This document shows, piece by piece, positions 7,170-50,279 of a DNA stretch of 64,000 nt. The DNA lies in assembly GCA_965261735.1 (NCBI GenBank), contig OZ253470.1, positions 4,250,980 to 4,314,979 on the forward strand, read 5' to 3'. This stretch comes from Alphaproteobacteria bacterium. GTDB lineage: Bacteria > Pseudomonadota > Alphaproteobacteria > SHVV01. Made by a program: the position numbers and the translations under genes. The notes under the pieces are model-generated. The model was given only the letters and a program-made list of their open reading frames with translations, was not told where the DNA came from and made no database searches. Position 1 is the stretch's first letter; each line of letters opens with the position of its first letter.

Positions 7170-7186
7170 GGCAAACGCAAAGAGTC

Positions 7187-29395: not shown

Positions 29396-30484
29396 GGCTT
29401 TGGTGCATGGACCTAAGGATTAGTATATCTGGCTCCGCTTCCGTCTTTGAGAGTTTGTCATGCCTTTCAAGTTCCACGCATCGCGTCGCCACCATATCCC
29501 CAGAGCCAAGTACCGGGTCATGAACTGGCCGGATTATGACCGTGGTTTGGTTCGGCGCGGCGACATTCGTTTCTGGATTGATGAGAGCGCCCTGGAGCAA
29601 TGGGACGCAGCCAAGCGGCGAACTCCTGGTGGCCAGCGGCGGTTTTCAGAGTTGGCGATTTCCACGACACTGATGCTGGGGGTGGTCTTCAGATTGCCGC
29701 TGCGCCAGACGGAAGGCTTTGTGCGTTCCCTCGTGGACTTGATGGGGTGCGATTTGCAGGTAGCGGATCACACCACACTGTCGCGGCGGCGGCGAACGGT
29801 GGATGTCGTTGTGGAAACCAGCACGAACAAGCGGTCTACGGATATCGTGCTGGATTCCACGGGCCTGAAATTCTTTGGCGCTGGCGAGTGGGCTCGCGCC
29901 AAGCACGGTGAAACGCGGCGCTCGTGGCGCAAGCTGCATATCTCGGTTGACCCGGCCAGCAGCGAGATCCGGACGCATGAACTGACCGGTGACGACACGG
30001 CCGATGCGACGATGGCGGGACCGCTGGTCGCCGGTTCCGGTGGGATGATCCGGCGCGTGTTTGCCGACGGCGCCTATGACGGGGAGCCCGTGACAAAAGC
30101 GATCCGAGAAGCTCGGCCACCGAATTCACCACCTGAAATCATCATCCCGCCACGCGCCACATCCATTCCTCCCCCGGACACGCCTCATGGCGGATCGGAA
30201 CGGGAGCACCATGCGGCGGAGATCGCGTCGAAGGGAAGGATGAACTGGCAGAAACGACAGGGCTACGGATTGAGAGCGCTTGGCGAAACAGCCATGGCTC
30301 GCGTCAAGAGGCTCAACGGCGGCAAGCTCAACGCTCGCACATTCCAATCCCAACAAACCGAAATCGCCATGCAGATCGACGCACTCAATCGCTCTATCCG
30401 TGCGGCGAAACCAAACACAATCAGGATCCGCTAACCAACCGGGGAATGGGCGATCACACCATCGCAGCTCCATGCACCAAAGCC
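29396..30484 (+). mobile_element. IS5-family, IS903-group element, copy 1 (1089 bp)
   Basis: 18-bp IRs GGCTTTGGTGCATGGACC / GGCTCCATGCACCAAAGCC, compared with the IS903 IR GGCTTTGTTGAATAAATC. No target duplication is visible. Confidence 0.75.
29460..30434 (+). CDS. IS903-group (IS5-family) transposase
   Basis: 324 aa; AKYRVMNWPDYDRGLVRRGDIRFWIDE is the IS903-type N-terminus, followed by a DDE domain. Confidence 0.85.
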   Translation: MPFKFHASRRHHIPRAKYRVMNWPDYDRGLVRRGDIRFWIDESALEQWDAAKRRTPGGQRRFSELAISTTLMLGVVFRLPLRQTEGFVRSLVDLMGCDLQVADHTTLSRRRRTVDVVVETSTNKRSTDIVLDSTGLKFFGAGEWARAKHGETRRSWRKLHISVDPASSEIRTHELTGDDTADATMAGPLVAGSGGMIRRVFADGAYDGEPVTKAIREARPPNSPPEIIIPPRATSIPPPDTPHGGSEREHHAAEIASKGRMNWQKRQGYGLRALGETAMARVKRLNGGKLNARTFQSQQTEIAMQIDALNRSIRAAKPNTIRIR

Positions 30485-30529
30485 GATTGGCGCGTCTTTA
30501 CAACTCGTATGGACCAAGACTGACCGGCT

Positions 30530-31729
30530 TCACTCCTTGCGCGGCAGAAACAACATCGGCACGAAATAGGCGGTAAACAGCGTGAAGGCGACAAACCAAC
30601 TGCCGGCGGTTGCCCAGAGCAGACTTAGAGCGGGCACGACCTCGAAGGCTGCGCGTGTGCAGACCGCCAGCGTAGCGAAACCGTATATCGCGACAACCCA
30701 TGGTCCAGCGTGGAGGTCGCGCCCGGTATGGCCGAGAACCGCGCGGGTCATGACGGCCAGGGTCATCGTCCCGATCGCGCCGAGTGTAAGTACATGCAGC
30801 GCCAACGGCTCCATCACCCAGTCTACGAGCATCGAGGCCCCGAGAAGGCCGAGGCCCAATGCAAGCCAGAAGTAGCCGGCATGCAACACAGTCACAAGCG
30901 GCTCGGCTGCCGTCCTCCAGCCCCGCCATCGTGCCAGCCGGACGAGGTTCAATGCCCCTGCTAACGTTAGGAGAATGCCGGAAAGCGGGATAGGCGCCGA
31001 TCCCACCCAGGCCGCGAGCGCAACCGCTGTCACGGCGAGCGTCGTTTGGTCGAACCGGCCCATCGGCGCTGTGATATTCGGGCCCGCTCGCCGCTCGAAC
31101 CAGTTGTGCGTGAAGCTCGGAACGATGCGCCCGCCGATCAACGTTATTAACAGCGACATGACGGCGATGGAGAGCCGAACACCCGCCTCTCCCACATGAG
31201 CCACGCCCGCCGCGGAGAGATGGAACAGCACGTTGGCGGTCAACATCAGTATAAGCCCGGCGAGGACCGGCAGATTGCGCCAGTTGCGGCCCGCAACGAT
31301 CGCGTTACCGACAAGAACCGAGAGAACTCCCAGATAGGCAAGATCGGCGACCGCCGTTGGCATTGGTCCGACTGCGCCTCCCCACCAGACGGCACCCCGG
31401 CCGCAAAGCCAGATCAAGGCGAGTGCGCCGAGCGGCCAGCCCCTTACTGGAGGGCGCCCGGTCCAGTTCGGCACCGCGGTCAACACGAAGCCACCGAGCG
31501 CCGCCCCGACATACCCGAACATCATCTCATGGACGTGCCACATCGTCGCATCGCCCAGCCCGGGATATGAGATCGCCCCCGACCAGATCCCGATCCATAG
31601 GGGCACAGACAGCGCAGCCCACAGCCCGGCCAGGAAGAAAAGCGGGCGAAAACCCTCTCGAAGAAACTCCGGCCCGGAATAGTGGCGTTGCGGTTCTAGC
31701 CGTGTCTGGTTCGTTATTTCTGCCCCCAT
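30530..31729 (-). CDS. nnrS: NnrS-family heme-copper membrane protein (NO-response)
   Basis: 399 aa, about 12 TM helices, TAVPNWTGR motif and conserved His residues typical of NnrS. Confidence 0.8.
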   Translation of the reverse strand: MGAEITNQTRLEPQRHYSGPEFLREGFRPLFFLAGLWAALSVPLWIGIWSGAISYPGLGDATMWHVHEMMFGYVGAALGGFVLTAVPNWTGRPPVRGWPLGALALIWLCGRGAVWWGGAVGPMPTAVADLAYLGVLSVLVGNAIVAGRNWRNLPVLAGLILMLTANVLFHLSAAGVAHVGEAGVRLSIAVMSLLITLIGGRIVPSFTHNWFERRAGPNITAPMGRFDQTTLAVTAVALAAWVGSAPIPLSGILLTLAGALNLVRLARWRGWRTAAEPLVTVLHAGYFWLALGLGLLGASMLVDWVMEPLALHVLTLGAIGTMTLAVMTRAVLGHTGRDLHAGPWVVAIYGFATLAVCTRAAFEVVPALSLLWATAGSWFVAFTLFTAYFVPMLFLPRKE

Positions 31730-31768
31730 GAGGGTGTGGGTCTGGTATGGAAAATCTAAGTCATTGAT

Positions 31769-31981
31769 TTAGTGCGTTTTTGTGTCGAGACGAACGGCCG
31801 AAAACGGCTATTCGTGACAATGGGCCGCTCCAAGGCAGGATTTTGTCACGACGGCAGGGTGGAGCAGGGGAGGTGGGAACGCTCCGCACCGCCAGAGGCG
31901 GTACGATGCCGTGTCTCGAAACCCAACATCGGGAGCATTGCCATGGCAGTATCCCCGCCTCCGGCGCCTTCGTCCATCGAT
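31769..31981 (+). mobile_element. ISKra4-like element: left terminus plus the first 13 codons of the transposase, truncated
   Basis: Reverse-complement identity to 63708-63920, ending TTAGTGCGTTTTTGTGTCGAGACGAAC. It is cut at 31981 by an IS-A left-end fragment. Confidence 0.6.
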
Positions 31982-32043
31982 CCTTGCCTATCCGGTTTAC
32001 ACCCACACCCACTAGGGCTAGAATGGGCGCAAACCGGATATAG
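31982..32043 (+). mobile_element. 62-bp left-end fragment of IS1595-family IS-A
   Basis: CTTGCCTATCCGGTTTACACCCACACCCACTAGGGCTAGAATGGGCGCAAACCGGATATAGGGGA, then unrelated sequence. Confidence 0.6.
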
Positions 32044-33446
32044 GGGATGAAATAGGTCTGCCCAAAGCTGGACGAGAACATCATCAGCATCCCGAAGCTC
32101 AGAAAGCCGCGGTTGCGTAGAATGAAATGGAAATAGGTCACAGGAAGGCGTTGTCATGTATGGACGCCCCCGGTGTTGCAAGGGGAAAACTGATTTGAAT
32201 CGGCGGTAGAGCTTGCAGTCATGTATCCGGCCTTTTCGCTGCGGTACGCTGACCGCTGGCCCTGATGGAATCCGAAAGATCGACGCCCAGTCAGACTAAC
32301 GAGCTTGATGCTCGGACAATGCCTCGGGTTTGGCCGATCTCGGGTGGAACCCTGTTTCGCCATCAAATCGTCGTCACCCTCGCAATTTGATCCCGGTTTG
32401 CCAGCTGGCTATGCCGGCGTCGGTCGGTAGATACGCTCGTACCTGAGCAGTGCCCAGGCGACACGGGCTGCCTTATTGGCCATGGCGACCAGCACCACGT
32501 TTGTCGGCCGCCGCGCCAGGAGCCGGTCGGTCCAGCCAGGCCCCGTGCCCGGCTTGGCGCGGCGCCAGCGCAGCACGCTTCGCGCACCATGCACGAGCAA
32601 GCGCCTGATATAGCCATCCCCGCGCTTCGAGATCCGCCCCAGCCTGTCCTTGCCGCCACTCGAGTGTTGTCGGGGCACGAGACCGAGCCAGGCCGAGAGC
32701 TGCCGGCCCGAGCGAAACTGCGCGCCATCTCCGATCGTCGCGACCAGCGCCGTCGCGGTGATGACACCGACGCCGGGGATCGTCGCAAGCCGGCGGCTCG
32801 CCTCGTTGGAGCGGTGCCATGCCATAAGTGTCGCCTCCAGCTGCTTGATCCGGGCCTGAGCAGAGCGGAGCTGCTCAACCAGAGAGCCAAGCGCCTCGCG
32901 TGCCAGAGGCGGCAGTCGCACATCGCCGGGATCTTCGATAATGGCAACCAGTTCCTCCACCTTCGACGCCCCCTGAGCGACGATCAGTCCGAACTCCGCA
33001 CAGTGGCCGCGCAGCGCATTGATCACCATCGTGCGTTGACGGACCAACAGCTCTCGGGCCCGGTGCAGCATCAGAACCGACTGCTGCTCGGCGCTTTTCG
33101 CCGGTGCAAAGCGCATCGTCGGACGCGTCACTGCCTCACAGATCGCTTCCGCATCCGCTGCGTCGTTCTTATTCGTTTTGACGAAGGGACGAACGTATTG
33201 AGGCGGAATCAGCTGAACTTTGTGCCCGTGTGCTTGCAGTTCCCGAGCCCAATAGTGCGCAGAGGCACAGGCTTCCATACCGACAAGACAGGATGGCAAT
33301 CCGGCGAAGAACGCCAGCACCTTCTGTTGGTAGCGACCGTAAATTTCCCATTTGTAACGACCCAAAATTTCTCACTTTGGGCTTGTCGCTGAAGGCGTCC
33401 CGGGCCGCTCTGTTGGCTTTGCCAACAGAGCGGGATCGGTGCGCGG

Positions 33447-34469
33447 ATGTACAAATGGGAGACCAGGATGTTGTTGAAGCACTATCTGGACCGGGGTGTC
33501 TCGAAGGCGGAGCTGTCGAGGCGGTTCGGGGTGAACCGTCGGACGATCCACAATTGGGTCGATACCGGCCAACTGGACCGGGATCTGGCGGCCGGTGCGC
33601 GAGGGTATTCGCCCCGTCCGCCGGTGGCCCACAAGCTGGACCCCTACAAGGCGATCATCGACGCCCGTCTTGAGGCGTTCCCGAAGCTGTCGGCGAAGCG
33701 GCTTTTCGATGAGGTCCGCGCTGCGGACTACCCGGGCTGCTACTCTCGCGTGAACGACTACGTGCGGGCGACGCGACCGCGCGAACCGGTTGAATCGCTG
33801 GTCCGGTTCGAGACGCCGGCGGGGCGTCAGGGCCAGGTGGACTTCGGTACGTTCACGCTGCCCTGGGGCCGGCGCCATGCCCTGGTGATCGTCCTCGGCT
33901 TCACCCGGCTGCTGTGGCTGCACTTCTATACTCGGCAGACCATGCCGGTCCTGATGGAAGGTCTGGAGAGCGCCTTCGACCGGTTCGGCGGGGTTCCGGA
34001 GGAGCTGCTGTTCGACCAGATGCGCGCCGTGGTGCTGTCCGACGACCGCGGGGCCGGCGGCGGCCTGGTGCTGAACGAGGAGTTTCTGCGGTTCGCCGCG
34101 CACTGGGGGTTCATGCCGCGCTCGTGCCGACCCTATCGGGCCCAGACCAAGGGCAAAGTGGAGCGCCCGATCCGCTACATCCGCGAGAGCTTCTTCTACG
34201 GCCGCTCGTTTGCGAATGACAACGATCTCAACGAGCAGGCCGTGCGCTGGCTGGAGGGCACAGCCAACGTCCGCCGGCATGCCACGACCGGGGAGCGTCC
34301 TGTCGACCGCTTCGAGCGCGACGAGCGAGCGGTGCTTCTCCCCTTGGCGAACCATCCCTATCGACGTCTCGGCGTCCGGCATGCTCCGGAGCCCGCGCCG
34401 CGGCGACTGCCGGCAACCGTGAAGGTCGAGCAGCGACCGCTTAGTGTCTATGCGGAGGCGCTGCAATGA
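33447..34469 (+). CDS. istA: IS21-family transposase IstA
   Basis: 340 aa with an N-terminal HTH (LSRRFGVNRRTIHNW) and a DDE integrase core (...RQGQVDFGTF...VLMEGLESAF...). Confidence 0.85.
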   Translation: MYKWETRMLLKHYLDRGVSKAELSRRFGVNRRTIHNWVDTGQLDRDLAAGARGYSPRPPVAHKLDPYKAIIDARLEAFPKLSAKRLFDEVRAADYPGCYSRVNDYVRATRPREPVESLVRFETPAGRQGQVDFGTFTLPWGRRHALVIVLGFTRLLWLHFYTRQTMPVLMEGLESAFDRFGGVPEELLFDQMRAVVLSDDRGAGGGLVLNEEFLRFAAHWGFMPRSCRPYRAQTKGKVERPIRYIRESFFYGRSFANDNDLNEQAVRWLEGTANVRRHATTGERPVDRFERDERAVLLPLANHPYRRLGVRHAPEPAPRRLPATVKVEQRPLSVYAEALQ

Positions 34470-35263
34470 ACGCTCCGGCGCCGGCCCGGCGCGACCGGCT
34501 GCGGGCAATGCTGGCGGACCTCAAGATGCCGGGCGCGCTGGAGGCCGTCGACGGCATCCTCTCGGACGCCGACGGCGGCACGATCTCGGCGGCCGAGGCC
34601 ATCGAGCAGTTGCTGAACGCCCAGATCGTGCTGCGCAACAACCGCCGTCTCCAGACCGCCATGCGCTCTTCGCGGCTGCCGGCTGTGAAGACGCTCGATC
34701 AGTTCGACTTCGCCTTCCAGCCCAGCATCAAGCGCGAGCAGATCGAGAGCTTGCACGAGCTCGGCTTCCTGGACCGCGGCGAGAACGTGATCCTGCTCGG
34801 CCCACCAGGCGTCGGGAAAACGCACTTGGCGATCAGCCTCGCGATCGCGGCGGCCGAGGCCGGCCGGCGCGTCTACTACGGCACGCTCGCGGCGCTGATC
34901 GAGTCCCTCACCGAGGCCAAGGCCGCCGGCAATCTGACCCGGCGGCTGCGCGTGCTCACCCATCCGGCCCTGCTGGTGGTCGACGAGATCGGCTACCTGC
35001 CGGTCAACCAGGACGGCGCCGTGCTCTTCTTCCAGCTCATCAACGCCCGGCACGAGAGGGCGTCGACTGTGCTGACGTCGAACAAGGGTTTCGAGGACTG
35101 GGGTGGCGTGCTCGGCGACGAGGTCATGGCGGCGGCTCTCATCGACCGCCTTGTGCACCACTGCCACATCGTCAACATCCGGGGCAACAGCTACCGGATG
35201 AAGGAGCATCAGAACCTGCTGCAGTCCGGCTCGGATCGACGCAGGAAAAGAGCCGCCGCGTGA
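34466..35263 (+). CDS. istB: IS21-family helper ATPase IstB
   Basis: 265 aa with Walker A GPPGVGKTHLA and Walker B LLVVDEIGY. ATGA overlap with istA. Confidence 0.85.
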   Translation: MNAPAPARRDRLRAMLADLKMPGALEAVDGILSDADGGTISAAEAIEQLLNAQIVLRNNRRLQTAMRSSRLPAVKTLDQFDFAFQPSIKREQIESLHELGFLDRGENVILLGPPGVGKTHLAISLAIAAAEAGRRVYYGTLAALIESLTEAKAAGNLTRRLRVLTHPALLVVDEIGYLPVNQDGAVLFFQLINARHERASTVLTSNKGFEDWGGVLGDEVMAAALIDRLVHHCHIVNIRGNSYRMKEHQNLLQSGSDRRRKRAAA

Positions 35264-35819
35264 TCGCCGGCTCAAACGGAGACAGGAGCGGTGACACCCG
35301 CCCGCTGTGGATAACCGGGTTGTCGCCGCCAGACTCTTGGCGGTCGCTGCGCCAACCCGGTTACCTACAGCTCGACCAAGTCCGACACCCCAAACACCGC
35401 GTCTGGGGGTACGACCGAACGCTCAAAGTGAGAAATATTTCGATCGACAAAAGTGGGAAATTTTCAGTCGCAATTGACACCTTCCCGCGGCGCAGCTTCC
35501 GCCGTAGTACCGGTCGTCCCTCACCATCAGCACCGTGAACCTGGAACACCGTCTTTGCCAGATCAAACCCAATTGTCGTAATATCCATCGTGGACGCTCC
35601 CTCTGTCTGGGTTGTTCAACACACTCCAGTATGGCTCATCGTGAAGCCGTAGGGGGCTTCCATACCATCAGACGAACTGGATAGGATCTGAAGAACCTGC
35701 AAACCAGGCCTCTCAGGCTGCAAGTTGACGCCACTCGGCCAAGGCGGCGGCTCGGGTTTGTTTGAAAATATCGCGGCGGTTGAGATGGCGTTCGTGGCTG
35801 AAGTGGTTATGGATTGAGG

Positions 35820-36924
35820 CTTGCCTATCCGGTTTACACCCACACCCACTAGGGCTAGAATGGGCGCAACCCGGATATAGGGGAGCGCGCCATGGATGTT
35901 CTCGACCGCGCCGATCTCCCATTCCCGCATTCGCTACCCGAGTTCCAGCGACTTTTCCCCGATGATGCGGCCTGCGCCGCCTACCTGGAGAAAGCCCGCT
36001 GGGGAGACGGCTTTGCCTGCCCGCACTGCGGCACGGCGGGAGAGCCGTTCCACTTTGAAAACCGCCCTGGCGTCCTGCGCTGCCGCAAGTGCCGCCAGAA
36101 CACCGGGCTGACGGTGGGAACAGTGATGGAGCGTAGCCACACTCCGCTGAACGTCTGGTTCTGGGCCGCTTATCTGGTCGCCAGTCAGACGCCCGGCATG
36201 TCCGCCGTGCAGTTTCAGCGGCAACTTGGTCTTTCGCGCTACGAGACGGCCTTTCAAATTCTCCACAAGCTCCGCTCGGGCATGGTGCGGCCCAACCAAG
36301 ACAGGATCGGTGGACAGCCCAAGAACCATGTTGAGATGGACGAAACCTGGGTTGGCGGGCGAACGCGTGGGGAAGGCCGTGGTGTTCACCACAAGGTTCC
36401 CGTCTCCTGTGCCATCGAGGTGCGTCATCGAAAGCCGGGCACCAAGCTCGACAACCGGAAAGACGGACGCTATGCCGGACGCGTTCGGCTCGCCGTCGTG
36501 CTCGACCGTAGCGCCGAGTCGCTCTGTGGGTTCGTCGAGAGCACCGTCGCGCCGCGATCGCTGATCGTTACTGACGATTGGAGCGGCTATGCTGGCCTCG
36601 GGAAGCGCGGCTATGAGCACTTCGCTGTTGCCGAGTGTGGTGATCCAGAGGTTGCCGAGCAATACCTGCCGATCATCCATCTGGTTTTCGCCAACCTGAA
36701 GACGTGGCTGATCGGTATCCACCACGGCGTTAGCCACCAGCACCTACAAGCCTACCTCAACGAGTTCACCTTCCGCTTCAACAGGCGGTTCTACCCGTTC
36801 AACGCCTTCCGCTCATTGCTCGGCATCGCGGGCGACACCTCTGCTCCAACCTATGCCGAGCTTTACTCGGGAGAGTGGCGGCACCCTACATGTAGCGGTC
36901 ATGGGCGTTAACCGGATAGGCAAG
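35820..36924 (+). mobile_element. IS1595-family 'IS-A' copy 3, intact, 1105 bp
   Basis: IRL CTTGCCTATCCGGTTTACACC and IRR GGCGTTAACCGGATAGGCAAG with an intact 339-aa transposase. It directly abuts IS-B copy 2 at 36925. Confidence 0.8.
35892..36911 (+). CDS. IS1595-family transposase (IS-A)
   Basis: 339 aa with zinc ribbon CPHCG...CRKCRQ and a DDE_Tnp_IS1595 domain. It is the reference copy for the other IS-A fragments. Confidence 0.85.
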   Translation: MDVLDRADLPFPHSLPEFQRLFPDDAACAAYLEKARWGDGFACPHCGTAGEPFHFENRPGVLRCRKCRQNTGLTVGTVMERSHTPLNVWFWAAYLVASQTPGMSAVQFQRQLGLSRYETAFQILHKLRSGMVRPNQDRIGGQPKNHVEMDETWVGGRTRGEGRGVHHKVPVSCAIEVRHRKPGTKLDNRKDGRYAGRVRLAVVLDRSAESLCGFVESTVAPRSLIVTDDWSGYAGLGKRGYEHFAVAECGDPEVAEQYLPIIHLVFANLKTWLIGIHHGVSHQHLQAYLNEFTFRFNRRFYPFNAFRSLLGIAGDTSAPTYAELYSGEWRHPTCSGHGR

Positions 36925-37917
36925 GTATGTTCTCAATATGTTCTGTATGAGGGGGTCACGGTTATGGGGTTCAAGGTTGCATCGCGCGTGCGTGGTCTGA
37001 ACGACGAGGCGTTTCGGGAGGCCTTCGGCACCAAGGAGCAGTGCCGCGCGGCGCTGGTCCGGCTGCGCTGGCCGGGCGGCTTCGTCTGCCCCTGCTGCGG
37101 CCATCGGGAGCATTGCGTGTTGGCGGGTCGGGGTCTCTATCAATGCAACCGGTGCAAGAAGCAGACATCGCCCACGGCGGGCACGATCTTCCACGCGACC
37201 AAGCTGCCGCTGACAGTCTGGTTTGCCGCCATCCACCTGATCGTGACGGCGAAGAACGGCATCTCGTCGGTGGAACTCGGCCGCCGTCTCGGGGTCAAGC
37301 AGCCGACGGCCTGGGCCGTGAAGCACAAGATCATGGCGGTGATGGCGCGGCGCGAGGGGGAGACGGCGCTTACGGGGCGGGTCGAGATGGACGACGCCTA
37401 TCTCGGCGGGGTGCGCTCCGGCGGCAAGCGGGGCCGCGGCGCGGCGGGCAAAACGCCCTTCGTGGCGGCGGTCTCGACCAGTCCCGAGGGGCGCCCGCGC
37501 AAGCTGAAGCTGGCGTCGGTCAAGGGCTTCCGCAAGCGCGAGATCGCGCGCGGCGCCAAGCACTGGCTGGCCCCCGGAGCGGCGGTTGTGACGGACGGCC
37601 TGGGCTGCTGGAGCGCACTCGAAGAAGCCGCCTGCAGCCACCAGGCGATCCGCACCGGGTCGGGCCGCCAGGCGGCCCGCATGGCATCGTTCAAATGGGT
37701 GAACACGACGCTCGGCAACATCAAAAGCGCGATCACCGGGACTTATCGCAAGCTCGGCCCCGACCATGCCGGACGCTATCTCGCCAGCTTCGCCTGGCGC
37801 TACAACCGGCGCTATCAACTCCAGACAATGATCCCGCGTTTCGTCCATAGCGCCGCACGAAACCAGCCCATGCCCTATCGCCTCCTCATCGCCGGATGAC
37901 TTTCAGGGATGGGCAGG
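36925..37917 (+). mobile_element. IS1595-family 'IS-B' copy 2, lacking the first ~33 bp of IRL and fused to IS-A
   Basis: Identical to copy 1 from GTATGTTCTCAATATG onward. Right IR GGATGGGCAGG versus GGATAAGCAGG in copy 1. Confidence 0.7.
36964..37899 (+). CDS. IS1595-family transposase (IS-B), copy 2
   Basis: 312 aa from MGFKVASRVRGL...; a few substitutions relative to copy 1 (e.g. GRGAAGK versus GRGVAGK). Confidence 0.8.
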   Translation: MGFKVASRVRGLNDEAFREAFGTKEQCRAALVRLRWPGGFVCPCCGHREHCVLAGRGLYQCNRCKKQTSPTAGTIFHATKLPLTVWFAAIHLIVTAKNGISSVELGRRLGVKQPTAWAVKHKIMAVMARREGETALTGRVEMDDAYLGGVRSGGKRGRGAAGKTPFVAAVSTSPEGRPRKLKLASVKGFRKREIARGAKHWLAPGAAVVTDGLGCWSALEEAACSHQAIRTGSGRQAARMASFKWVNTTLGNIKSAITGTYRKLGPDHAGRYLASFAWRYNRRYQLQTMIPRFVHSAARNQPMPYRLLIAG

Positions 37918-38083
37918 TAAGAATTTGACGCCTCGGACTCTAACGATTTCACTATGTTAGTACGCCGATCGGCGCTGAATACGTACGCCGAATAACACTC
38001 GGGTTCCCGGAGCGTCGGGCCAGCCGGGGCGGGCCGCGGGGGAGCGGAGACGCCGCAACCGTACGGCGCCTCCGCGACCGAGG

Positions 38084-40338: not shown

Positions 40339-40382
40339 TACGGAATCTCAAATCGGACTCTTTCGTTCCGATCAATCCACTA
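39230..40382 (-). mobile_element. IS630-family element, complete, flanked by TA
   Basis: Terminal IRs TAGTGGATTGAT... at both ends with TA at each junction, as expected for IS630/Tc1-mariner-type elements. Confidence 0.7.
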
Positions 40383-40413
40383 GGATCGATCGCGGGACCG
40401 CTCCAGCGCCCCC

Positions 40414-40975: not shown

Positions 40976-41089
40976 TTGATGCGCGCCGAGCGCATACAGG
41001 CGGCGGCGATGGCGCCGCTCGGTGACTCGAGGGCGAGCGCCCGGAGCCGGGGACCACGAAGCTCGCTCTTCTCGTCGCCCATCTCAGTG

Positions 41090-41253
41090 CCCCGGGCGGC
41101 GCGACCATCGCCGAACTCTGTAAGGCAACGGGCTGGCAGCCCCATTCGGTTCGAGGCGGGCTCGCCGGTGCGCTGCGACGCAAGGGCCACGTCATCCGGT
41201 CCGAGAAAGAAGGGGGCCAGCGGCGCTACCGCATCGAGGAACCGGTGACATGA
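41090..41253 (+). pseudogene. DUF3489-family gene, C-terminal fragment
   Basis: ...GATIAELCKATGWQPHSVRGGLAGALRRKGHVIRSEKEGGQRRYRIEEPVT* is the conserved DUF3489 C-terminal module; no N-terminus. Its stop overlaps the DUF2924 start (ATGA). Confidence 0.4.
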
Positions 41254-41663
41254 CCGGCGAGGCGCCGCTTGCGGACGAGATCGAGGCGCTCACGCCCCTT
41301 GGTCTCGAAGGGCTTCGAGAGGTTTGGCGCAACCGCTACGGTGTCCCGCCGAAGCTGCGCTCGGCTGCGCTGTTGCGTCATTGTCTGGCCTGGCGGCTGC
41401 AGGCAGAGGCTCTCGGCGGTCTCGATCGTGACACACGGCGCAAGCTCAAGCGCCGCCAGCGGGTCCAGGCAGAAGGTCTTGAGCTCGGGATCGGGACCAC
41501 GCTGCAGCGCGAATGGCAAGGGCAGATAGTCCAGGTCACGGTCGAAGAAGAGGGGTTTCGCCACGGGGGTCAACTCTTCAAGAGCCTCTCCGCGGCCGCG
41601 ACCGCGATCGCGGGCACGCGTTGGAATGGCCCGCGCTTCTTCGGCCTCCGATCCGCCAAATGA
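41250..41663 (+). CDS. DUF2924-domain protein
   Basis: 137 aa (LEGLREVWRNRYGVPPKLRSAALLRHCLAWRLQAEALGGLD...). This family typically sits just upstream of large serine recombinases in alphaproteobacterial integrative elements. Its stop overlaps the recombinase ATG. Confidence 0.6.
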   Translation: MTGEAPLADEIEALTPLGLEGLREVWRNRYGVPPKLRSAALLRHCLAWRLQAEALGGLDRDTRRKLKRRQRVQAEGLELGIGTTLQREWQGQIVQVTVEEEGFRHGGQLFKSLSAAATAIAGTRWNGPRFFGLRSAK

Positions 41664-42358
41664 GCCAACCCCGTCTCCACTGTGCCCTCTATACGAGGAA
41701 GAGTAGCGAGGAAGGCCTCGAGCAGGCGTTCAACTCCCTCGATGCGCAGCGCGAAGCCTGCGCGGCGTATGTGAAGAGCCAGGCCGGCGAAGGTTGGAGA
41801 GCAGTTCGGGCCCGCTACGACGATGGCGGCTTCTCCGGCGCGTCCATGGAGCGCCCGGCGCTCAAGCGGCTTCTCTGCGACATCGTTGTTGTCCGCGCCG
41901 AGCTCCACGATCAGTCGCTGCACTGCTTGCTGCCGATCGACCGGATCGTCGCGATGCGCCAGCGCCTCGAGCCGCACGAACGCCTCGAGCCGGATCCGGC
42001 CGATGCGCGTCTCGCCAGACTGCATCTGCCCCTTGTCCGGCGTCGTGGCGAGACCTGGGTTCTCAAGGGCCCAAGTGCGGGACACATGCCGGACCCTGTT
42101 CTGGTCAAGGCGCTCCGCTCCGCACACGCCATGCTGCACCACGATGATGGCGGATTGCCCGTGCTCGTCACAGCGCCGGATACGCCCTATCGCCGCCAGC
42201 TCGTTCGCCTGGCCTTTCTGGCGCCGGAGATCCAAAGAGCGATTGTTGAAGGTCGCCAATCCGCAGGCCTGACACTGGCACAGCTCCTCAAGGGCCCGAT
42301 GCCGCTCGACTGGCCGCAACAGGCCGTCCGAATCGGCATTGCGGCATCGCTGGAATAG
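41660..42358 (+). pseudogene. Large serine recombinase, internally deleted or degenerate (232 aa versus the usual ~550 aa)
   Basis: It retains the resolvase catalytic N-terminus (CALYTRKSSEEGLEQAFNSLDAQREACAAYV...YDDGGFSGASMERPALKRLLCDI) and the conserved C-terminal tail (...RLAFLAPEIQRAIVEGRQSAGLTLAQLLKGPMPLDWPQQ). The recombinase/zinc-ribbon middle is missing. Confidence 0.55.
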
Positions 42359-42458
42359 GGACCAGCACCCACATCCCGCTCACTCGACTACGGCAAGACG
42401 GGCCGGATTATTTCCTGTTCCCTTCATTTGCTTCCCTGATATCGACTGCCCTTCCCCC

Positions 42459-42625
42459 TGTTTTGCAGAAAAGACCCCCTGTTTTGCAGAAAAGAACCCC
42501 TGTTCTGCAGAAAAGAACCTCTGTTCTGCAGAAAAGAACCCCTGTTCTGCAGAAAAGAACCCCTGTTCTGCAGAAAAGAACCCCTGTTCTGCAGAAAAGA
42601 CCCCCTGTTCTGCAGAAAAACAGGA
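42459..42625. repeat. Tandem array, ~8 x 21-bp unit TGTTCTGCAGAAAAGAACCCC; each unit contains the 10-bp perfect palindrome TTCTGCAGAA
   Basis: Head-to-tail units at 42459, 42480, 42501, 42522, 42543, 42564, 42585 and a partial eighth at 42606. Unit variants are TTTTGCAG versus TTCTGCAG and GACCCC versus GAACCC. There are no intervening spacers. All six reading frames are open through it. Confidence 0.85.
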
Positions 42626-42639
42626 AAGTTCAGAAGTCA

Positions 42640-43130
42640 TTGATAAAAAAAGATAATTTCTTCATTTTGGTCGGCAGTTCGCTACAATCTCCCTGTTTTG
42701 AGGCCGTAATCGCAAAGATTCCCTGTTGCCACCAAACTCACCCTTGCATCGCGCTCGCGGAGACCGCACGCCGCGAAGCCCGGCAATGGCCGGAAATGCT
42801 CCCGGGTTCAGGAGCTCAGAATTCCGTTTGACCGCGAAACGGGCCCTGTTTCCCGCGGCTTGGCCGAGCTATGCGATGAAGAGACTGCTTCGCCGGGGTG
42901 GCTGGCTGTGCAGGCAGTCTCCCGCGAACTCGTCTCTGAGGCCAATTCCCTGTTTAACAGGGAAAATACAGGGAAATTTTCTCTTTTGCAGGGATTCAGA
43001 AGCTTTCCTGTGTTCAAAACATGGCAGAAACGCTAGTGTTTTCGGTCCAATTCCCTAAACCATGTAACAGGGAATTTATTTGAACGAACAGGGATTTTGT
43101 TCGGGAGAACAGGGAATTCTACTGGTCCAC
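42640..43130. promoter_or_regulatory. AT-richer non-coding region seeded with AACAGGGA(A/T) motifs in both orientations; putative iteron/centromere/recombination site
   Basis: Motifs at about 42691 (rc), 42721 (rc), 42838 (rc), the palindrome TTCCCTGTTTAACAGGGAA at 42949, ACAGGGAAA at 42972, and three direct repeats AACAGGGAWTT at 43067, 43088 and 43109, exactly 21 bp apart. The repeat units at 42459-42625 each carry the same core (CCCCTGTT is the reverse complement of AACAGGGG). Confidence 0.55.
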
Positions 43131-43139
43131 GGCGGCAGC

Positions 43140-43862
43140 CGAAACATGATCGCGCCCGGCGCCGGCGCCGGGTCGATGTGGTTCATGAGTTGGCGGGAGC
43201 CTGAGGCCGCTTGGTTGTTGCACGGCATCTTCGACGTGCAGCCCTGTTCGAAGGACTTCGAGGCGAAGTTCGCCGACGTGGCGACCGCGTACGGGTCGCC
43301 GCTCCCACCACGGGCCCGGCAGGAGATCCTGCGGATTGCGGAACGGCTGGCACTCGTGGAAGAGCAGATCGCCCGGGTCGAGGCCGAACGTAATGCGTTC
43401 GTGCTGTCTGGAGAGGCAACCTCGATGGTGGATGCGCCCGAGGGAAGCCAAGCGCGGGCGGCGGCGAAGATCGCGGCGTTGACCCGGCTGAAGGCGATCG
43501 GTCCGAACGACGCAACCATCCTGACGCACGAGGTCTTCTACCGCGGGTTCCGCAATCGTCGCGAACTCGCGAGCTGGGTCGGTGTGACGCCAGCCCCTTG
43601 GGCGAGCGGAGACACGTACCGCGACCAGGGGATCAGCCGCGACGGTCCGGCATGGATCCGGGCACAGCTCATCCAAATGGCGTGGCGTTGGCTGCGCTAT
43701 CAGCCTGATAGCGCGCTCAGCAAGTGGTTCAACGAGCGCACTGCGGGGTCCCGCGGGCGGATCCGCCGGGTGATGATCGTGGCGCTCGCCCGCAAGCTGC
43801 TCATCGCGCTCTGGCGGTTCTCCGAGACCGGTCTCGTGCCGACTAGCGCCACGCTCGTCTGA
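43140..43862 (+). mobile_element. IS110-family transposase gene lacking the N-terminal DEDD domain (fragment)
   Basis: The C-terminal half ...ILTHEVFYRGFRNRRELASWVGVTPAPWASGDTYRDQGISRDGPAWIRAQLIQMAWRW...MIVALARKLLIALWRF matches the IS110 Transposase_20 region. There is no catalytic N-terminus. Confidence 0.55.
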
Positions 43863-44180
43863 TCGCGAGACCGCGCTGTTCCAGACCGGTCGGACGCGGC
43901 CGGGGCTGGGCCGGGTGGCGAGTGGCCGAAGCTCTTCCAGGCTGAAACACGCTGACCGAGAGATGGTCCCCGCCTCCGGAACGCTGCACCCGCAGCAAGC
44001 GGGATCGAGGGACGGTTCCGGCGGACCGTCGCCGAAAAACCTCCCGGATGAGAGTTGGGTATGTGCACAAGCGCGACCGATGCGAAAAGCGTTCCGACCT
44101 GGCTACAAGGCAATCAACCATCAATCCGATCAACCCAGAAAGCGAGTTCGCCATGCAGTAAACCCAACCAACTTCTCCGC

Positions 44181-44215
44181 TTGACTGCGTCTGCCCTCAT
44201 AAGAGCGAGAGTTTG
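44181..44215 (+). promoter_or_regulatory. Possible sigma-70-like promoter (TTGACT, 17-19 bp, TAAGAG) upstream of the ParB-like gene
   Basis: CTTGACTGCGTCTGCCCTCATAAGAGCG lies about 80 bp upstream of the ATG at 44294. Sequence-only guess. Confidence 0.25.
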
Positions 44216-44293
44216 AGCCAAAGGCGGGCGAGGGCGGATGCCGAAGAGGGTGCCCCCGCCCGGTTCCGCATTCACGCAATCCCGGAGACTGAA

Positions 44294-45340
44294 ATGCACG
44301 ACCCCGAACGCGATATCTCTGACATCCCGCTGTCCCAACTCGAACTCTCGCCCGACAATGTGCGCAAGACGCCGGCGGATGATTCGGCCTTCACCGAGCT
44401 CAAGGCCTCGATCGCCGCCCACGGGCTGCTCGAGAACCTGATTGCCCGTTCCATGGGACCCGGCGCGGATGGCCCCGGGCGCTACGCGGTGATCGCCGGC
44501 GGACGGCGGCTTGCCGCGATGCAGGCGCTGGCCGCCGAGGGCACGCTGGACGAGGACCACCCCGTGCCCTGCCGCATGATCGGAAGCATCGTGGCGGCCG
44601 AAGAGGTTTCGCTGGCCGAGAACAGTGTCCGCGCCGCAATGCACACGGCCGATCAGGTCGAAGCCTTCCGCCGCCTGGCCGATGCGGGTAGCACGGCGGG
44701 CGCCATCGCGGCGCGCTTCGGGGTCTCGGAGCGCACCGTGGAGAAGCGGCTGCGGCTCGGCAACGCCGCACCGGTACTGCTCGAGGCCTACCGCGCGGGC
44801 GACATCGATCTGGAAACATTGATGGCCTTTGCCGTCACCACGGATCAGGCTCGCCAAAGCACGGTCTGGGCGGCGGTGAGCCAGCAGGGCTACCGGCCCG
44901 GCGCCTGGCAGATCAAGCGCCTGCTGACCGAGGACCGGGTTCCGGCTACGTCCGCCATCGCGCGTTTCGTCGGCATCGAGGCTTACGAGGCGGCGGGCGG
45001 CCAGATCGACCGCGACCTGTTCGCCGAGGAGGACGAGCGGGGGATCTGGTTCGACGATCCCGATCTGTTGAACAAGCTCGCCATGGACAACCTACAGGCC
45101 GTGGCGAGGGAACTGGAGACGCGCGGGAAATGGGCCGAGGCGCGGCTCGACGTGGACTGGAACGCTACCGCGAGCTTTGGGCGGGTCGGCCGAGCCGACG
45201 GACGAGGAGAAGGCCGAGATCGAACGCTTGAGGACCCGCAACGACGAACTCGCCAATATGGAGGACGACGGCTGGACCGAAGAATTGGTCGAGGAAGCCG
45301 ATGCCAACGAGACGCGCCTGGACGAGATCGAGGTTCATCG
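44294..45340 (+). pseudogene. ParB-like nuclease-domain protein (ICE/plasmid-type), disrupted by two frameshifts
   Basis: N-terminal ParB/Srx domain (LSQLELSPDNVRKTP...AHGLLENLIARS...YAVIAGGRRLAAMQAL), then EAYRAGDIDLETLMAF... The frame then shifts at about 45180 to the coiled-coil segment EPTDEEKAEIERLRTRNDELANMEDDGWTEELVEEADANETRLDEIE, and again at about 45340. Confidence 0.6.
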
Positions 45341-45777
45341 ACAGCGATCTCTATCTGCCCTCGATGCACTCGCAGGGCATCGATGCCATCGCCATCATCA
45401 TCGATACCTCCGCCTCGCTGCCGGGCGAAACGCTGGCCCTGTTCTGGGCCGAGGTCCGCGAGATCGCCGCCGAACTGCAACCGAACAGCATCTATGTCCT
45501 TCAGGTCGACGCGGTGCTGCAGGACGCGGCCCAATATCCCGCCGGGGAACTACCGGACAGCATCACGATCAAGGGACGCGGCGGGACCGATTTCCGGCCA
45601 GGCTTCGCATGGCTCCATGAGCATGGGGTGCATCCAAGCTGCTGCCTCTACCTGACCGACATGGAATGTGACAGCTACCCCGAGGCCGCGCCCCCATATC
45701 CTGTGGCTTGGGTCGTTTGGGGCGGCGATCGATACCGCCAGCCCTGGGGCGAGCGCATCGACATCGGACCAGCCTGA
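45340..45777 (+). pseudogene. VWA-like (DUF2201-type) domain fragment fused downstream of the ParB-like gene
   Basis: IIIDTSASLPGE has the MIDAS DxSxS motif; ...GRGGTDFRPGF...LYLTDMECD follows. This is only the C-terminal VWA module of the usual metallopeptidase-VWA protein. Confidence 0.5.
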
Positions 45778-45988
45778 TACCGCGGGCCGCGCCCGCATAA
45801 TCCTTCATATCCGTGCCTCCGCCCGCAAGGAGGCGGGTTGCGCTGAGGCCGGGTGAACCGGGGCCGGGAGAGCGATGACACCGGCTTAACCGGCGGCGAA
45901 CGCGCCCGCGCGTCCGCCCGTCGTCCAGCCCAATCCCACATTCCCAGCGAATGCCGATGCCTCAGGCATCCGCTCCAAGCCGGCCGCG

Positions 45989-46395
45989 TTGCTGGCTGCC
46001 GCAATCGCTCTGCTTCTCGAGCTTGAGGCAGGCCGAGCGCTTGATGCAAAGACCCTGCGCGAAGCCATGAGCGCGGCCTTCGGCGCCAGCGACGGCCAAG
46101 GCGCCTGGGTCTGGAAGGACGCCTACGAAGCGGTCGAAGCCGCAATGGTGCTGTTCATCCAGCGTTACGGCCGCCTCATGCGCCGCGAGGCGGGCGCCGG
46201 ACAGGGATCCGCCGCCGCCATGCTCGCCATGCTGGAAACCCTCGCGGCCCTGGAGCCATCCCAGACGAGGCGGTCGGAAGAACAGCTTGCCCTACAGCAG
46301 TTCTCCACCCCCTTGCCGCTCGCCTACGCCGCGCTGCAAGCCGCCGCCATCCGACCCGGCGACATCGTGCTGGAGCCCTCGGCCGGCACCGGCGG
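45989..46395 (+). pseudogene. N-terminal fragment of the large ICE-type SAM-dependent DNA methyltransferase/helicase
   Basis: LALQQFSTPLPLAYAALQAAAIRPGDIVLEPSAGTGG carries the FSTP and EPSAGTG methyltransferase motifs. The sequence diverges to junk right after SAGTGG and stops at 46456. The conserved large protein of alphaproteobacterial ICEs is about 1400 aa. Confidence 0.5.
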
Positions 46396-46559
46396 TCACG
46401 AAGCGCCGGTCAGTCGCGGCTATCTTCCAGCCGTCCGTCAGGCCGGACTGATGTAAACGGCCTCTGTGACCTGGTGGGAGGGTCCGACAGGCGCTCTATA
46501 TTGCAAGAGAACCTTAGTGACAGTGCGGCGTCTCTTTTCCGTTGGTGTCTCGGCGTCTC

Positions 46560-47461
46560 GATTGGCGCGTCTTTACAACTCGTATGGACCAAGACTGACC
46601 GGCTTCACTCCTTGCGCGGCAGAAACAACATCGGCACGAAATAGGCGGTAAACAGCGTGAAGGCGACAAACCAACTGCCGGCGGTTGCCCAGAGCAGACT
46701 TAGAGCGGGCACGACCTCGAAGGCTGCGCGTGTGCAGACCGCCAGCGTAGCGAAACCGTATATCGCGACAACCCATGGTCCAGCGTGGAGGTCGCGCCCG
46801 GTATGGCCGAGAACCGCGCGGGTCATGACGGCCAGGGTCATCGTCCCGATCGCGCCGAGTGTAAGTACATGCAGCGCCAACGGCTCCATCACCCAGTCTA
46901 CGAGCATCGAGGCCCCGAGAAGGCCGAGGCCCAATGCAAGCCAGAAGTAGCCGGCATGCAACACAGTCACAAGCGGCTCGGCTGCCGTCCTCCAGCCCCG
47001 CCATCGTGCCAGCCGGACGAGGTTCAATGCCCCTGCTAACGTTAGGAGAATGCCGGAAAGCGGGATAGGCGCCGATCCCACCCAGGCCGCGAGCGCAACC
47101 GCTGTCACGGCGAGCGTCGTTTGGTCGAACCGGCCCATCGGCGCTGTGATATTCGGGCCCGCTCGCCGCTCGAACCAGTTGTGCGTGAAGCTCGGAACGA
47201 TGCGCCCGCCGATCAACGTTATTAACAGCGACATGACGGCGATGGAGAGCCGAACACCCGCCTCTCCCACATGAGCCACGCCCGCCGCGGAGAGATGGAA
47301 CAGCACGTTGGCGGTCAACATCAGTATAAGCCCGGCGAGGACCGGCAGATTGCGCCAGTTGCGGCCCGCAACGATCGCGTTACCGACAAGAACCGAGAGA
47401 ACTCCCAGATAGGCAAGATCGGCGACCGCCGTTGGCATTGGTCCAGACTGCGCCTCCCCAC
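46560..47461. repeat. 902-bp segmental duplication of 30485-31386, covering the 3' 286 codons of nnrS plus its downstream flank
   Basis: Identical at every position I compared by eye. The duplication boundary (GATTGGCGCG...) coincides exactly with the outer end of IS903-like copy 1 at 30485. The distal end is cut by IS903-like copy 2 at 47462. Confidence 0.8.
46605..47461 (-). pseudogene. nnrS: nnrS second copy, 5'-truncated by an IS903-like insertion
   Basis: ORF 46605..47546 is identical to nnrS residues ~114-399. Its N-terminus is fused to IS-derived sequence. Confidence 0.75.
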
Positions 47462-48518
47462 GGCTTTGGTGCATGGAGCCGCGATGGTGTGATTGCCCAT
47501 TCCCCGGTTGGTTAGCGGATCCTGATTGTGTTTGGTTTCGCCGCACGGATAGAGCGATTGAGTGCGTCGATCTGCATGGCGATTTCGGTTTGTTGGTATT
47601 GGAATGTGCGAGCGTTGAGCTTGCCGCCGTTGAGCCTCTTGACGCGCTCTCTCAATCCGTAGCCCTGTCGTTTCTGCCAGTTCATTCTTCCCTTCGACGC
47701 GATCTCCGCCGCATGGTGCTCCCGTTCCGATCCGCCATGAGGCGTGTCCGGGGGAGGAATGGATGTGGCGCGTGGCGGGATGATGATTTCAGGTGGTGAA
47801 TTCGGTGGCCGAGCTTCTCGGATCGCTTTTGTCACGGGCTCCCCGTCATAGGCGCCGTCGGCAAACACGCGCCGGATCATCCCACCGGAACCGGCGACCA
47901 GCGGTCCCGCCATCGTCGCATCGGCCGTGTCGTCACCGGTCAGTTCATGCGTCCGGATCTCGCTGCTGGCCGGGTCAACCGAGATATGCAGCTTGCGCCA
48001 CGAGCGCCGCGTTTCACCGTGCTTGGCGCGAGCCCACTCGCCAGCGCCAAAGAATTTCAGGCCCGTGGAATCCAGCACGATATCCGTAGACCGCTTGTTC
48101 GTGCTGGTTTCCACAACGACATCCACCGTTCGCCGCCGCCGCGACAGCGTGGTGTGATCCGGCACCGGCAGATCGCACCCCATCAAGTCCACGAGGGAAC
48201 GCACAAAGCCTTCCGTCTGGCGCAGCGGCAATCTGAAGACCACCCCCAGCATCAGTGTCGTGGAAATCGCCAACTCTGAAAACCGCCGCTGGCCACCAGG
48301 AGTTCGCCGCTTGGCTGCGTCCATTGCTCCAGGGCGCTCTCATCAATCCAGAAACGAATGTCGCCGCGCCGAACCAAACCACGGTCATAATCCGGCCAGT
48401 TCATGACCCGGTACTTGGCTCTGGGGATATGGTGGCGACGCGATGCGTGGAACTTGAAAGGCATGACAAACTCTCAAAGACGGAAGCGGAGCCAGGTATA
48501 CTAATCCTTAGGTCCATG
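47462..48518 (-). mobile_element. IS903-group element copy 2, degenerate (1057 bp; transposase frameshifted, 24-bp deletion)
   Basis: Both IRs are present. The transposase is split into 48252..48464 (N-terminal 55 aa, then frameshift) and 47512..48324, and lacks ALGETAMA relative to the other copies. Confidence 0.7.
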
Positions 48519-50272: not shown

Positions 50273-50279
50273 CAGATGA

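Follow-up and report, generated by a model that had tools for sequence, protein, structure and literature searches.

IS903-like insertion sequences mark the edges of a recent 902-bp nnrS repeat in an uncultured alphaproteobacterium

The insertion sequence (IS) IS903B, of the IS5 family and IS903 group, is 1057 bp long, ends in an 18-bp inverted repeat (GGCTTTGTTGAATAAATC) and shows a target-site duplication (TSD) of 9 bp. For IS903, adjacent deletions and cointegrates are documented and replicative events occur (PMC12670165). In Tn903-type compound transposons, inverted IS903-group copies bracket a segment, and a TSD at the outer ends, with flanks that become contiguous on removal of the unit, is expected. 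The usual causes of missing TSDs are IS–IS recombination and adjacent deletion, and in the E. coli long-term evolution experiment TSD-less IS lie at junctions of ancestrally non-adjacent sequences, at the edges of duplications and deletions (PMC11708052). Amoebophilus asiaticus has a very high IS load with many truncated copies, and 83% of its full-length copies are without direct repeats (PMC3196728).

Here we describe a locus of this kind in a stretch of 64,000 nucleotides (the window) from contig OZ253470.1 of the alphaproteobacterial assembly GCA_965261735.1. Self-comparison of the window revealed four copies (c1–c4) of one 1089-bp IS5-family, IS903-group element, and two copies (A and B) of a block, b, that belongs to nnrS. 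The features are collected in the table.

Table. Features of the duplicated nnrS locus and copies of the IS903-like element (window coordinates)
Feature	Position	Strand	Description	9-bp flanks (IS orientation)
IS21-family left-end fragment	28968-29395	+	IS end and first ~121 istA codons; cut off by c1	
IS903-like copy c1	29396-30484	+	1089 bp; intact 324-aa transposase at 29460-30434; Pfam PF13737 and PF01609; no TSD	atcgtgaag / gattggcgc
Block b, copy A	30485-31385		901 bp; 0 substitutions vs copy B; begins right after c1 IRR	
nnrS, intact	30530-31729	-	399 aa; Pfam NnrS (PF05940) model positions 2-371 of 371, E = 9.5e-106	
15-kb interval between blocks	31386-46387		Annotated by Pfam and NCBIfam scans; called gene tables of L001 and of the sister contig L003 agree	
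Third breakpoint, X/Y	46387-46388		No IS; homology to outgroups L004 and L035 stops here	
Y	46388-46559		172 bp, ancestral, downstream of nnrS; retained beside copy B alone; contiguous with b in L004	
Block b, copy B	46560-47461		902 bp; extra A at 47445; ends at the base before inverted c2 IRR	
nnrS pseudogene fragment	46605-47461	-	Codons ~115-399; 5' end cut by c2; Pfam NnrS positions 102-371 only	
IS903-like copy c2	47462-48528	-	Inverted; 1067 bp; 1-bp and 21-bp deletions	aagtggatg / gtggggagg
IS903-like copy c3	54627-55715	+	Intact; IS630-like reading frame, truncated, in left flank	tctcgatgc / acgtagcgg
IS903-like copy c4	60707-61795	+	Intact; left flank adjoins an IS3-family element at 59297-60510 (-)	gtggtgtga / cgttgctac

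Insertion sequences have accumulated in the region as a whole, which belongs to an uncultured and probably host-associated alphaproteobacterium. The interval between the blocks contains an IS110 element interrupted by an IS21 element, two IS1595 elements, a gene for an NMT1-type binding protein, IS630, PhyH, DUF2924 with a serine recombinase, an IS110 fragment and a ParB-like gene. An iteron-like array (21 bp x 7.9) lies with the ParB-like and DUF2924/resolvase genes to the left of copy B, and no replication gene was found in the interval. On the other side of c1, the translation of the istA fragment (MYGVELYAAVRLAVVDEGL...GGYTIVK) runs on into the IS; the fragment is 72% identical to IS21 elements in three further sequences (L023-L025) and has an 86% paralogue at 49726-49893.

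The assignment of the element to the IS903 group, made in the initial annotation, is borne out by its transposase and by its ends. The transposase matches PF13737 (E = 1.7e-33) and PF01609, reaches 278 bits with NCBIfam NF033579 (transpos_IS5_2; cut-off 140), and in tblastn is 35% identical to annotated IS903B transposases over residues 13-323, 96% of its length. The terminal inverted repeat (GGCTTTGGTGCATGGA) is perfect, 16 bp long as compared to 18 bp in IS903B, and begins with GGCTTTG, as in the IS903 group. Thus, the element shares with IS903, IS903B and IS102 a single DDE transposase gene, a length of ~1.06-1.09 kb and GGCTTTG ends, and falls within the ~1-1.1 kb and the ~16-18-bp inverted repeat starting GGCTTTG expected of the group. 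It differs from IS903B in its shorter inverted repeat, its 324-aa transposase and the absence of the 9-bp TSD from the 18 copies sampled. Identity to the nearest plasmid-borne relatives does not exceed 50%. The 32-nt left end has no exact counterpart in 185,579 reference genomes, DNA searches of a plasmid collection for near and distant matches yielded nothing close to the region or to the IS, and an exact-protein look-up found none of the c1, c3 and c4 transposases on record. The 90%-identity cluster of the transposase comprises 660 sequences. The element is an undescribed IS903-group IS that has greatly expanded in a group of uncultured alphaproteobacteria.

The mutual identity of the four 1-kb IS copies is 97-99%, which, together with the perfect 902-bp repeat, is far beyond chance. 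Copy c2 is inverted and degenerate, as had been noted, but its true end is at 48528 and not at 48518. Its two deletions leave it frameshifted; the 21-bp deletion is common to a sister contig (L003), and the 1-bp deletion is seen only in the window.

The two blocks have no substitutions between them, and the extra A in copy B is the single difference. A 902-bp block had been reported at 30485-31386 and 46560-47461; the repeat is real and the second pair of coordinates is correct, but copy A ends one base earlier and is 901 bp long. The block does abut the outer end of c1 exactly, copy A starting at the next base after the c1 IRR, and at the other edge of the overlap copy B stops against the c2 IRR, so the repeat is delimited by IS ends to the nucleotide. 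Given the identity of the two copies, the duplication is recent. Since the region is extremely repeat-rich, a collapse or expansion of the assembly around the repeated IS had to be considered, but its probability is negligible. Each block has unique flanks of its own and a single base distinguishes the two, an independent 24.8-kb contig from another sample (ENA ERZ25071132 ctg746155) spans c1, copy A, the interval, copy B and c2 in the same order, and a third contig (L002) covers c1 and copy A. The presence of the same structure on an independent metagenome contig shows that the duplication is not an artefact.

The nnrS gene at copy A has an open frame with a full-length PF05940 match, and its homologues are 61-72% identical over their full length. 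The gene at copy B lacks both features: its first ~115 codons are absent, and translation with and without the extra A places a +1 frameshift 17 nt from the c2 junction. In the sister contig L003, copy B has acquired a further 29-bp insertion near the nnrS stop codon. The second nnrS is thus directly seen to be a pseudogene, as first annotated, and its indels mark it as decaying, while copy A is, by its sequence, predicted to be the working gene.

Comparison with a related MAG, used as an outgroup (L004), provided the ancestral arrangement directly. Its order LytTR-Y-b-Q is uninterrupted and both IS sites are empty; its positions 6306-7392 match window positions 47461-46388 at 95%. The nearest outgroup is only 97% identical. 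The only neighbour that L004 has in common with the window locus is a mobile IS1595 element. The LytTR gene is also intact in two further sequences (L035 and L036), whereas more distant nnrS loci (L005-L012) have no synteny beyond nnrS itself. A tblastx comparison of L004 with the window was uninformative, with noise from high GC. A 378-bp sequence at 49897-50274 is common to L004, has discrete ends in both genomes and recurs in part in L031-L033. Its use as a marker of synteny, to test for an inversion, was rejected, since it is probably a small repeated element and uninformative.

Besides the two IS junctions, the comparison revealed a third breakpoint, X/Y, which falls within the last 22 codons of the LytTR-domain gene. 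Neither microhomology nor an IS was found at this join, which could equally be a deletion or capture junction rather than the join of a duplication.

The initial annotation had proposed that the IS903-like element mediates the duplication. The comparison does not show c1 to be its maker: copy B keeps Y, the X/Y breakpoint is without an IS, and the geometry fits no single product. Because copy B keeps the 172 bp that are lost at c1, the junction at c1 reflects a truncation of copy A in its own right and not the origin of the repeat. A transposition of c1 that would have made the 902-bp duplication and the inverted c2 in one step, one-ended or replicative, would account for overlap edges that coincide with IS ends and for the inverted orientation of the two IS, and IS903 replicative events do occur (PMC12670165). 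As the IS is an unreliable clock (below), a young age of c2, as a copy of c1, is conceivable in principle. However, copy B continues through Y, past the c1 junction, to a breakpoint without an IS, and there is no 9-bp relation between the flanks of c1 and c2. In addition, the standard Shapiro-type outcomes of one replicative transposition are deletion, duplicative inversion and cointegrate formation. A deletion leaves one IS, a duplicative inversion leaves two target copies that are inverted, one of them against an IRL, and a cointegrate places the second target copy against the IRL of a directly repeated IS. Both copies of the direct repeat described here abut the IRR ends of inverted IS copies, which, by derivation from these outcomes, no standard single event produces. 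We therefore regard the one-step origin as very unlikely.

Other rearrangements were tried and rejected. A duplicative inversion between any pair of copies finds no match of left and right flanks. Movement of c2 as a unit with its 1074-bp flank through a surrogate end at 46388 finds nothing resembling an inverted repeat at that end, which also shares no 9-bp repeat with 48529-48537. The inverted c1 and c2 bracket 17 kb (29396-48528) in the manner of Tn903, but the outer 9-mers, atcgtgaag and catccactt, do not match, the istA frame is not resumed in the right flank, and there is no sign that the unit moved as a whole.

The history that we favour, with a probability of roughly 0.55 for the whole, is a recent duplication followed by trimming through IS-adjacent deletions or IS–IS recombination; the order and the type of these events are what we infer. 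The ancestral locus would have been single-copy, with the LytTR gene, Y, b and Q, and with nnrS made up of b and Q. A recent duplication would then have produced two copies of the locus ~16 kb apart, in the simplest form a tandem duplication of 16,075 bp joined at X/Y (46387/46388). Two resident IS903-group copies, mutually inverted and with their IRR ends inward, would subsequently have trimmed the duplicates. The c1 IRR would have become joined 45 bp downstream of the copy A nnrS, removing LytTR and Y there, and the c2 IRR would have become joined inside the copy B nnrS at about codon 115, removing the 5' part of the gene. Each junction could have formed by an IS903-type adjacent deletion, that is, by intramolecular replicative transposition, or by simple insertion and then IS–IS recombination; both routes would leave no TSD. 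The 902-bp repeat would therefore be no more than the overlap that survived the two truncations.

Against the duplication-and-trimming history stands the need for at least three events, and no intermediate, either an untrimmed tandem duplication or a same-species allele without the IS, was found. Between c1 and c2, 11 of 1067 sites differ, as compared to 0 of 901 in b (Fisher p = 0.0013), which would make the split of the IS copies older than the duplication. However, among the sister contigs, orthologous c1 copies show 4-8 differences against a divergence of ~0.1% in their flanks, so the IS sequence is a poor clock here and we downgraded this argument. The excess of differences in the IS is due either to gene conversion or to low-coverage consensus errors.

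The genes directly to the left of copy B suggest another source for it. Copy B could be what is left of another nnrS locus that arrived on a plasmid or ICE, since integrated, and was later cut by c2; the ParB-like and resolvase genes and the iteron-like array are of the kind found on such elements, and X/Y would be the fusion of LytTR 3' sequence to unrelated DNA. The absence of substitutions over 901 bp speaks against it, since with the nearest outgroup at only 97% the donor would have to be the same strain, and the putative element is itself fragmentary and interrupted by IS copies. This origin is unlikely.

The same genes and array would also suit the capture of a 16,075-bp circle (b-Q...X-Y), an excised segment or a plasmid-like molecule, inserted between inward IRR ends by inverse (inside-end) transposition, with strand transfers 902 bp apart that left a giant target duplication. 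An IRR, a direct target copy t, the captured DNA, the second t and an IRR is the geometry of inverse transposition into a circle, and X/Y would be the point of circle closure. However, t is 902 bp here and not 9 bp, and we are aware of no IS903-type element that has made a target duplication hundreds of base pairs long. The lack of a replication gene in the interval, the earlier inner segment that must have been lost, and the fact that conventional steps give the same end product further weaken it, and we consider it highly improbable.

The absence of TSDs, in contrast, extends beyond this locus. As first annotated, none of the four copies has one: no direct repeat of 2-12 bp was found at the flanks of c1-c4, while the same check on a genuine IS903B recovered the expected 9-bp TSD (GCTTACTGC). 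The missing TSDs had been taken to imply recombination between copies or adjacent deletion, and the flanks are compatible with this, since each of the four copies joins sequences foreign to each other; c1, for instance, joins istA codon ~121 of an IS21-family element to DNA downstream of nnrS. Recombination between copies had been expected to leave hybrid flank pairs, the left flank of one matching the right flank of another as a 9-bp TSD, but none was found with up to two mismatches among c1-c4 and 14 other sites. In related assemblies, 0 of 18 distinct full-length sites has a TSD, and no insertion was found for which the matching empty site and both intact flanks could be read together. One sampled site has an exact 9-bp inverted flank (GTAGCGCGT, IS, ACGCGCTAC). 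In the same DNA, TSDs are retained by insertions of the IS21, IS256 and IS5-group types; other IS families still show polymorphic insertions that are fresh and have normal TSDs, so transposition has not fallen silent in this genome overall. The absence of TSDs is general for the sampled sites of this IS and not peculiar to the nnrS locus.

This pattern resembles that of A. asiaticus (PMC3196728), likewise loaded with IS and with most full-length copies lacking a TSD, in another organism and in other IS families; there is the further difference that some families here insert with normal TSDs. It also resembles the E. coli experiment (PMC11708052) in its TSD-less IS at duplication and deletion edges, with the differences that the events here are deduced from one outgroup and not watched, and that two different IS copies bound the overlap instead of one IS lying between the duplicates.

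At this locus, ordinary IS scrambling has left behind a gene fragment that is dead. In annotation, the nnrS of copy B is to be called a pseudogene and the 902-bp repeat is real. The locus is a clear small example of IS ends that border a repeat which they are not shown to have made, and one outgroup with empty sites suffices to separate the two claims. The only feature of wider interest is the absence of TSDs at all 18 sites. It is possible, though unlikely, that this IS903-group lineage moves without leaving a 9-bp direct TSD, through rearrangement- or break-associated insertion or an altered strand-transfer geometry. Such movement would explain why its 18 sites lack TSDs while IS21, IS256 and IS5-group elements keep theirs, and might also explain the single site with inverted flanks. 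If the absence reflects the mode of movement and not later scrambling, it bears on the recent proposal of rearrangement-coupled, TSD-less IS movement.

The entire window is a pile-up of insertion sequences, and its self-comparison revealed one element present in four copies (c1–c4). The full element is 1089 bp long, is bounded by a perfect 16-bp inverted repeat (GGCTTTGGTGCATGGA; left and right ends, IRL and IRR) and codes for a 324-aa transposase. Its sequence places it in the IS903 group of the IS5 family, with 35% identity to IS903B and at most 50% to any plasmid-borne relative. On sequence grounds, it appears to be a new member of the group, far from the described ones. Because of a 1-bp and a 21-bp deletion, c2 is 1067 bp long; the initial annotation had correctly described this copy as inverted and degenerate, but had placed its end at 48518, ten bases too early.

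Coordinates of the IS903-like copies, the repeated nnrS blocks and neighbouring genes
Feature	Position	Strand	Remarks
c1	29396-30484	+	IS903-like copy, from self-comparison
c2	47462-48528	inverted	IS903-like copy, from self-comparison
c3	54627-55715	+	IS903-like copy, from self-comparison
c4	60707-61795	+	IS903-like copy, from self-comparison
Block A	30485-31385		first base directly follows the IRR of c1
Block B	46560-47461		last base directly precedes the IRR of c2
nnrS, copy A	30530-31729	-	intact, 399 aa, full-length Pfam match
ParB-like gene	44213-45655		near the 21-bp repeat array

The two blocks, which are the repeated part of nnrS, show no substitutions, and their single difference is an extra A at 47445. 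The repeat had been annotated as a 902-bp block at 30485-31386 and 46560-47461; it is present and does start exactly at the outer end of c1, but block A ends one base earlier. The description of the second nnrS (copy B) as a pseudogene was borne out, since its Pfam match is confined to the last 270 model positions. A 218-bp sequence lies just upstream of the intact gene (31769-31985) and recurs, inverted and 97% identical, towards the right end of the window (63703-63920). The copy beside nnrS is followed by a 65-bp copy of an IS1595 left end (31983-32047).

The interval between the blocks holds an IS110 split by an IS21, two IS1595 elements, an IS630 and an IS110 fragment, together with a DUF2924 and serine-recombinase pair and the ParB-like gene. 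Outside the blocks lie IS256, IS5-group, IS3 and IS630 remnants and a few cargo genes. On the left, c1 is flanked by the initial ~121 codons of an IS21-family istA and c3 by a truncated IS630-like frame, and c4 adjoins an IS3-family element. Each of the copies with identifiable flanks (c1, c2 and c3) connects two sequences that are foreign to each other, and the IS-driven reshuffling proposed for the region is upheld.

Several further structures were observed in these surroundings. Within 35820-37920, two distinct elements of the IS1595 family, 1106 bp and 997 bp long, meet directly at 36924|36925. Each has a second copy 12-17 kb further left, where the two copies stand apart (19887-20883 and 23354-24459). 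An array at 42455-42619, close upstream of the serine-recombinase/DUF2924 pair, comprises 7.9 units of 21 bp (CCCCTGTTCTGCAGAAAAGAA) at 96% identity. It resembles iterons or a partition site, and its unit number apparently differs in L003, a sister metagenome contig. A 378-bp unit (49897-50274) stops at identical, discrete ends in the window and in the related genome L004 (8427-8773 and 10059-10095), where it is split by an IS5-like element; its last 56 bp recur in loci L031-L033. The unit is probably the end of an IS or a small non-autonomous element.

The possibility that the duplication is an assembly artefact was examined against metagenome contigs from other samples, which encode the exact NnrS protein. 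In ENA ERZ25071132 ctg746155 (24.8 kb; L001 and L003), c1, block A, the interval, block B and c2 follow one another as in the window, and the differences are IS polymorphisms elsewhere and a few small changes. Since this contig is independent, assembly error is excluded for practical purposes. The window's IS21 insertion is missing from the contig, which carries one more IS256-type insertion instead elsewhere; of the two c2 deletions it shows the 21-bp one and not the 1-bp one, and a further 29 bp are inserted close to the stop codon of its copy B. These small differences show that copy B is drifting.

The ancestral arrangement was read from a comparison with the outgroup L004, a related MAG from a reference-genome collection (CBDCMV010000002.1). 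Its nnrS, at 97% nucleotide identity, is one uninterrupted piece, in which 6009-7207 matches window 31682-30485 and 6306-7392 matches window 47461-46388. The ancestral locus was thus ordered Y-b-Q and had no IS at either site; here, b is the repeated part, Q the rest of nnrS and Y the 172 bp (46388-46559) that copy B retains and copy A lost at c1. Downstream of nnrS, L004 has a LytTR-domain gene, which is intact in other relatives (L035 and L036) and is reduced in the window to its last 22 codons (46388-46453). The retention of Y indicates that the copied fragment measured at least 1074 bp, and that the left edge of the repeat at c1 only records a later truncation of copy A by c1 or its junction. 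The proposal that c1 mediated the duplication is contradicted by this comparison. The second derived boundary of copy B, 46387|46388 (X|Y), has no IS, no sequence resembling an inverted repeat and no microhomology. The L004 locus has its own rearrangement, as the 5' end of its nnrS is different and homology begins only at codon 14 (L004:5827-6009; window 31682). Its LytTR frame is fused at the 5' end to an IS3-type HTH_21 segment.

We then considered single IS events as the source of the duplication, by derivation from established transposition models. Replicative transposition within one molecule leaves a single IS at a deletion or produces a duplicative inversion, in which the two target copies are mutually inverted and one lies against IRL. 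An event between molecules or sister chromosomes yields a cointegrate, with the second target copy against the IRL of a directly repeated IS. The observed geometry, in which direct-repeat copies both abut the IRR ends of inverted IS copies, is no standard transposition outcome, and a single event does not account for it. Given that an intact b-Q junction coexists with an intact Y-b junction, the two sites were affected in separate locus copies, and two such copies must have existed first. On the conventional path, a 16,075-bp tandem duplication with X|Y as the join would have been followed by an IS-associated deletion running inwards from c1, and then by a second running inwards from c2. Less probably, a 16-kb circle could have been the target of inverse transposition by the inner ends of c1 and c2, with strand transfers staggered by 902 bp, a geometrically neat solution for which, to our knowledge, there is no precedent. 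For the tandem duplication followed by deletions, adjacent deletions are documented for IS903, as are cointegrates (PMC12670165). If the junctions instead arose by insertion and recombination, the remainder of the IS21 should lie beside an IRR, preceded by ATCGTGAAG, and a second nnrS 5' fragment (31386-31729) beside an IRL with GTGGGGAGG.

The relative ages of the IS copies and the blocks were also compared. Between c1 and c2, 11 of 1067 sites are different, against 0 of 901 between the b copies, which at face value would suggest that the IS copies separated before the duplication. We did not rely on this argument, because the orthologous c1 copies in the sister contigs vary more (4-8 sites) than their flanks (~0.1%) and five of the differences in the window c1 are clustered. 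The IS sequences change faster than their surroundings, through either gene conversion or low-coverage consensus errors. These five substitutions are packed into 24 bp (29746-29780; IS positions 359-382) and occur in no other copy examined, including the orthologous c1 of L001 and L002; the cluster stems either from gene conversion of a short patch or from a local error in the consensus.

In agreement with the initial annotation, none of the four copies has a target-site duplication (TSD). Their 9-bp flanks have nothing in common within a copy, between copies or in inverted orientation, and the hybrid flank pairs envisaged between copies were not found among c1-c4. A genuine IS903B on an E. 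coli plasmid, examined in the same way, gave 1057 bp, an 18-bp inverted repeat and a 9-bp TSD; the missing TSDs are thus not a flaw of the method. Loci L023-L038 added 14 distinct sites with full-length insertions, and at none of the resulting 18 is there a direct repeat, whether right at the junction or offset by up to 40 bp; TSD loss is general for the element across the sampled sites. Accepted causes of missing TSDs are IS-IS recombination and adjacent deletion (PMC11708052), and a precedent is provided by the symbiont Amoebophilus asiaticus, in which 83% of full-length IS copies have no direct repeats (PMC3196728).

Three other IS insertions are polymorphic between the window and the sister contigs, all with normal TSDs: an IS21 in the window only (33325-35477; 6-7 bp), an IS256-type in L001 only (2187-3580; 9 bp) and an IS5-group element in L002 only (2775-4440; 4 bp), 6 bp left of c1. 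These families have therefore transposed recently. No IS903-like insertion is polymorphic in this sample, indicating that these copies are older and fixed, with time for rearrangement.

At one site (L031:9937-11025, L032:6871-7959, L033:874-1962), an IS903-like copy lies between exact 9-bp inverted repeats, GTAGCGCGT on the left and ACGCGCTAC on the right, which together form a perfect 18-bp palindrome with the IS in its middle. The flanks of another copy (L026:6361-7449) likewise match as an inverted repeat, at 7 of 9 positions. Such flanks on a single copy are not produced by any standard IS903 pathway.

IS-driven scrambling, as at this locus, is a well-known kind of phenomenon. Clustering at 90% identity groups the transposase among 660 sequences, every one of them from an ENA metagenome assembly; together with the absence of TSDs at all 18 sites, this points to a large, old expansion among uncultured alphaproteobacteria of one group. 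The universal lack of TSDs in this IS lineage is the only point of wider interest.
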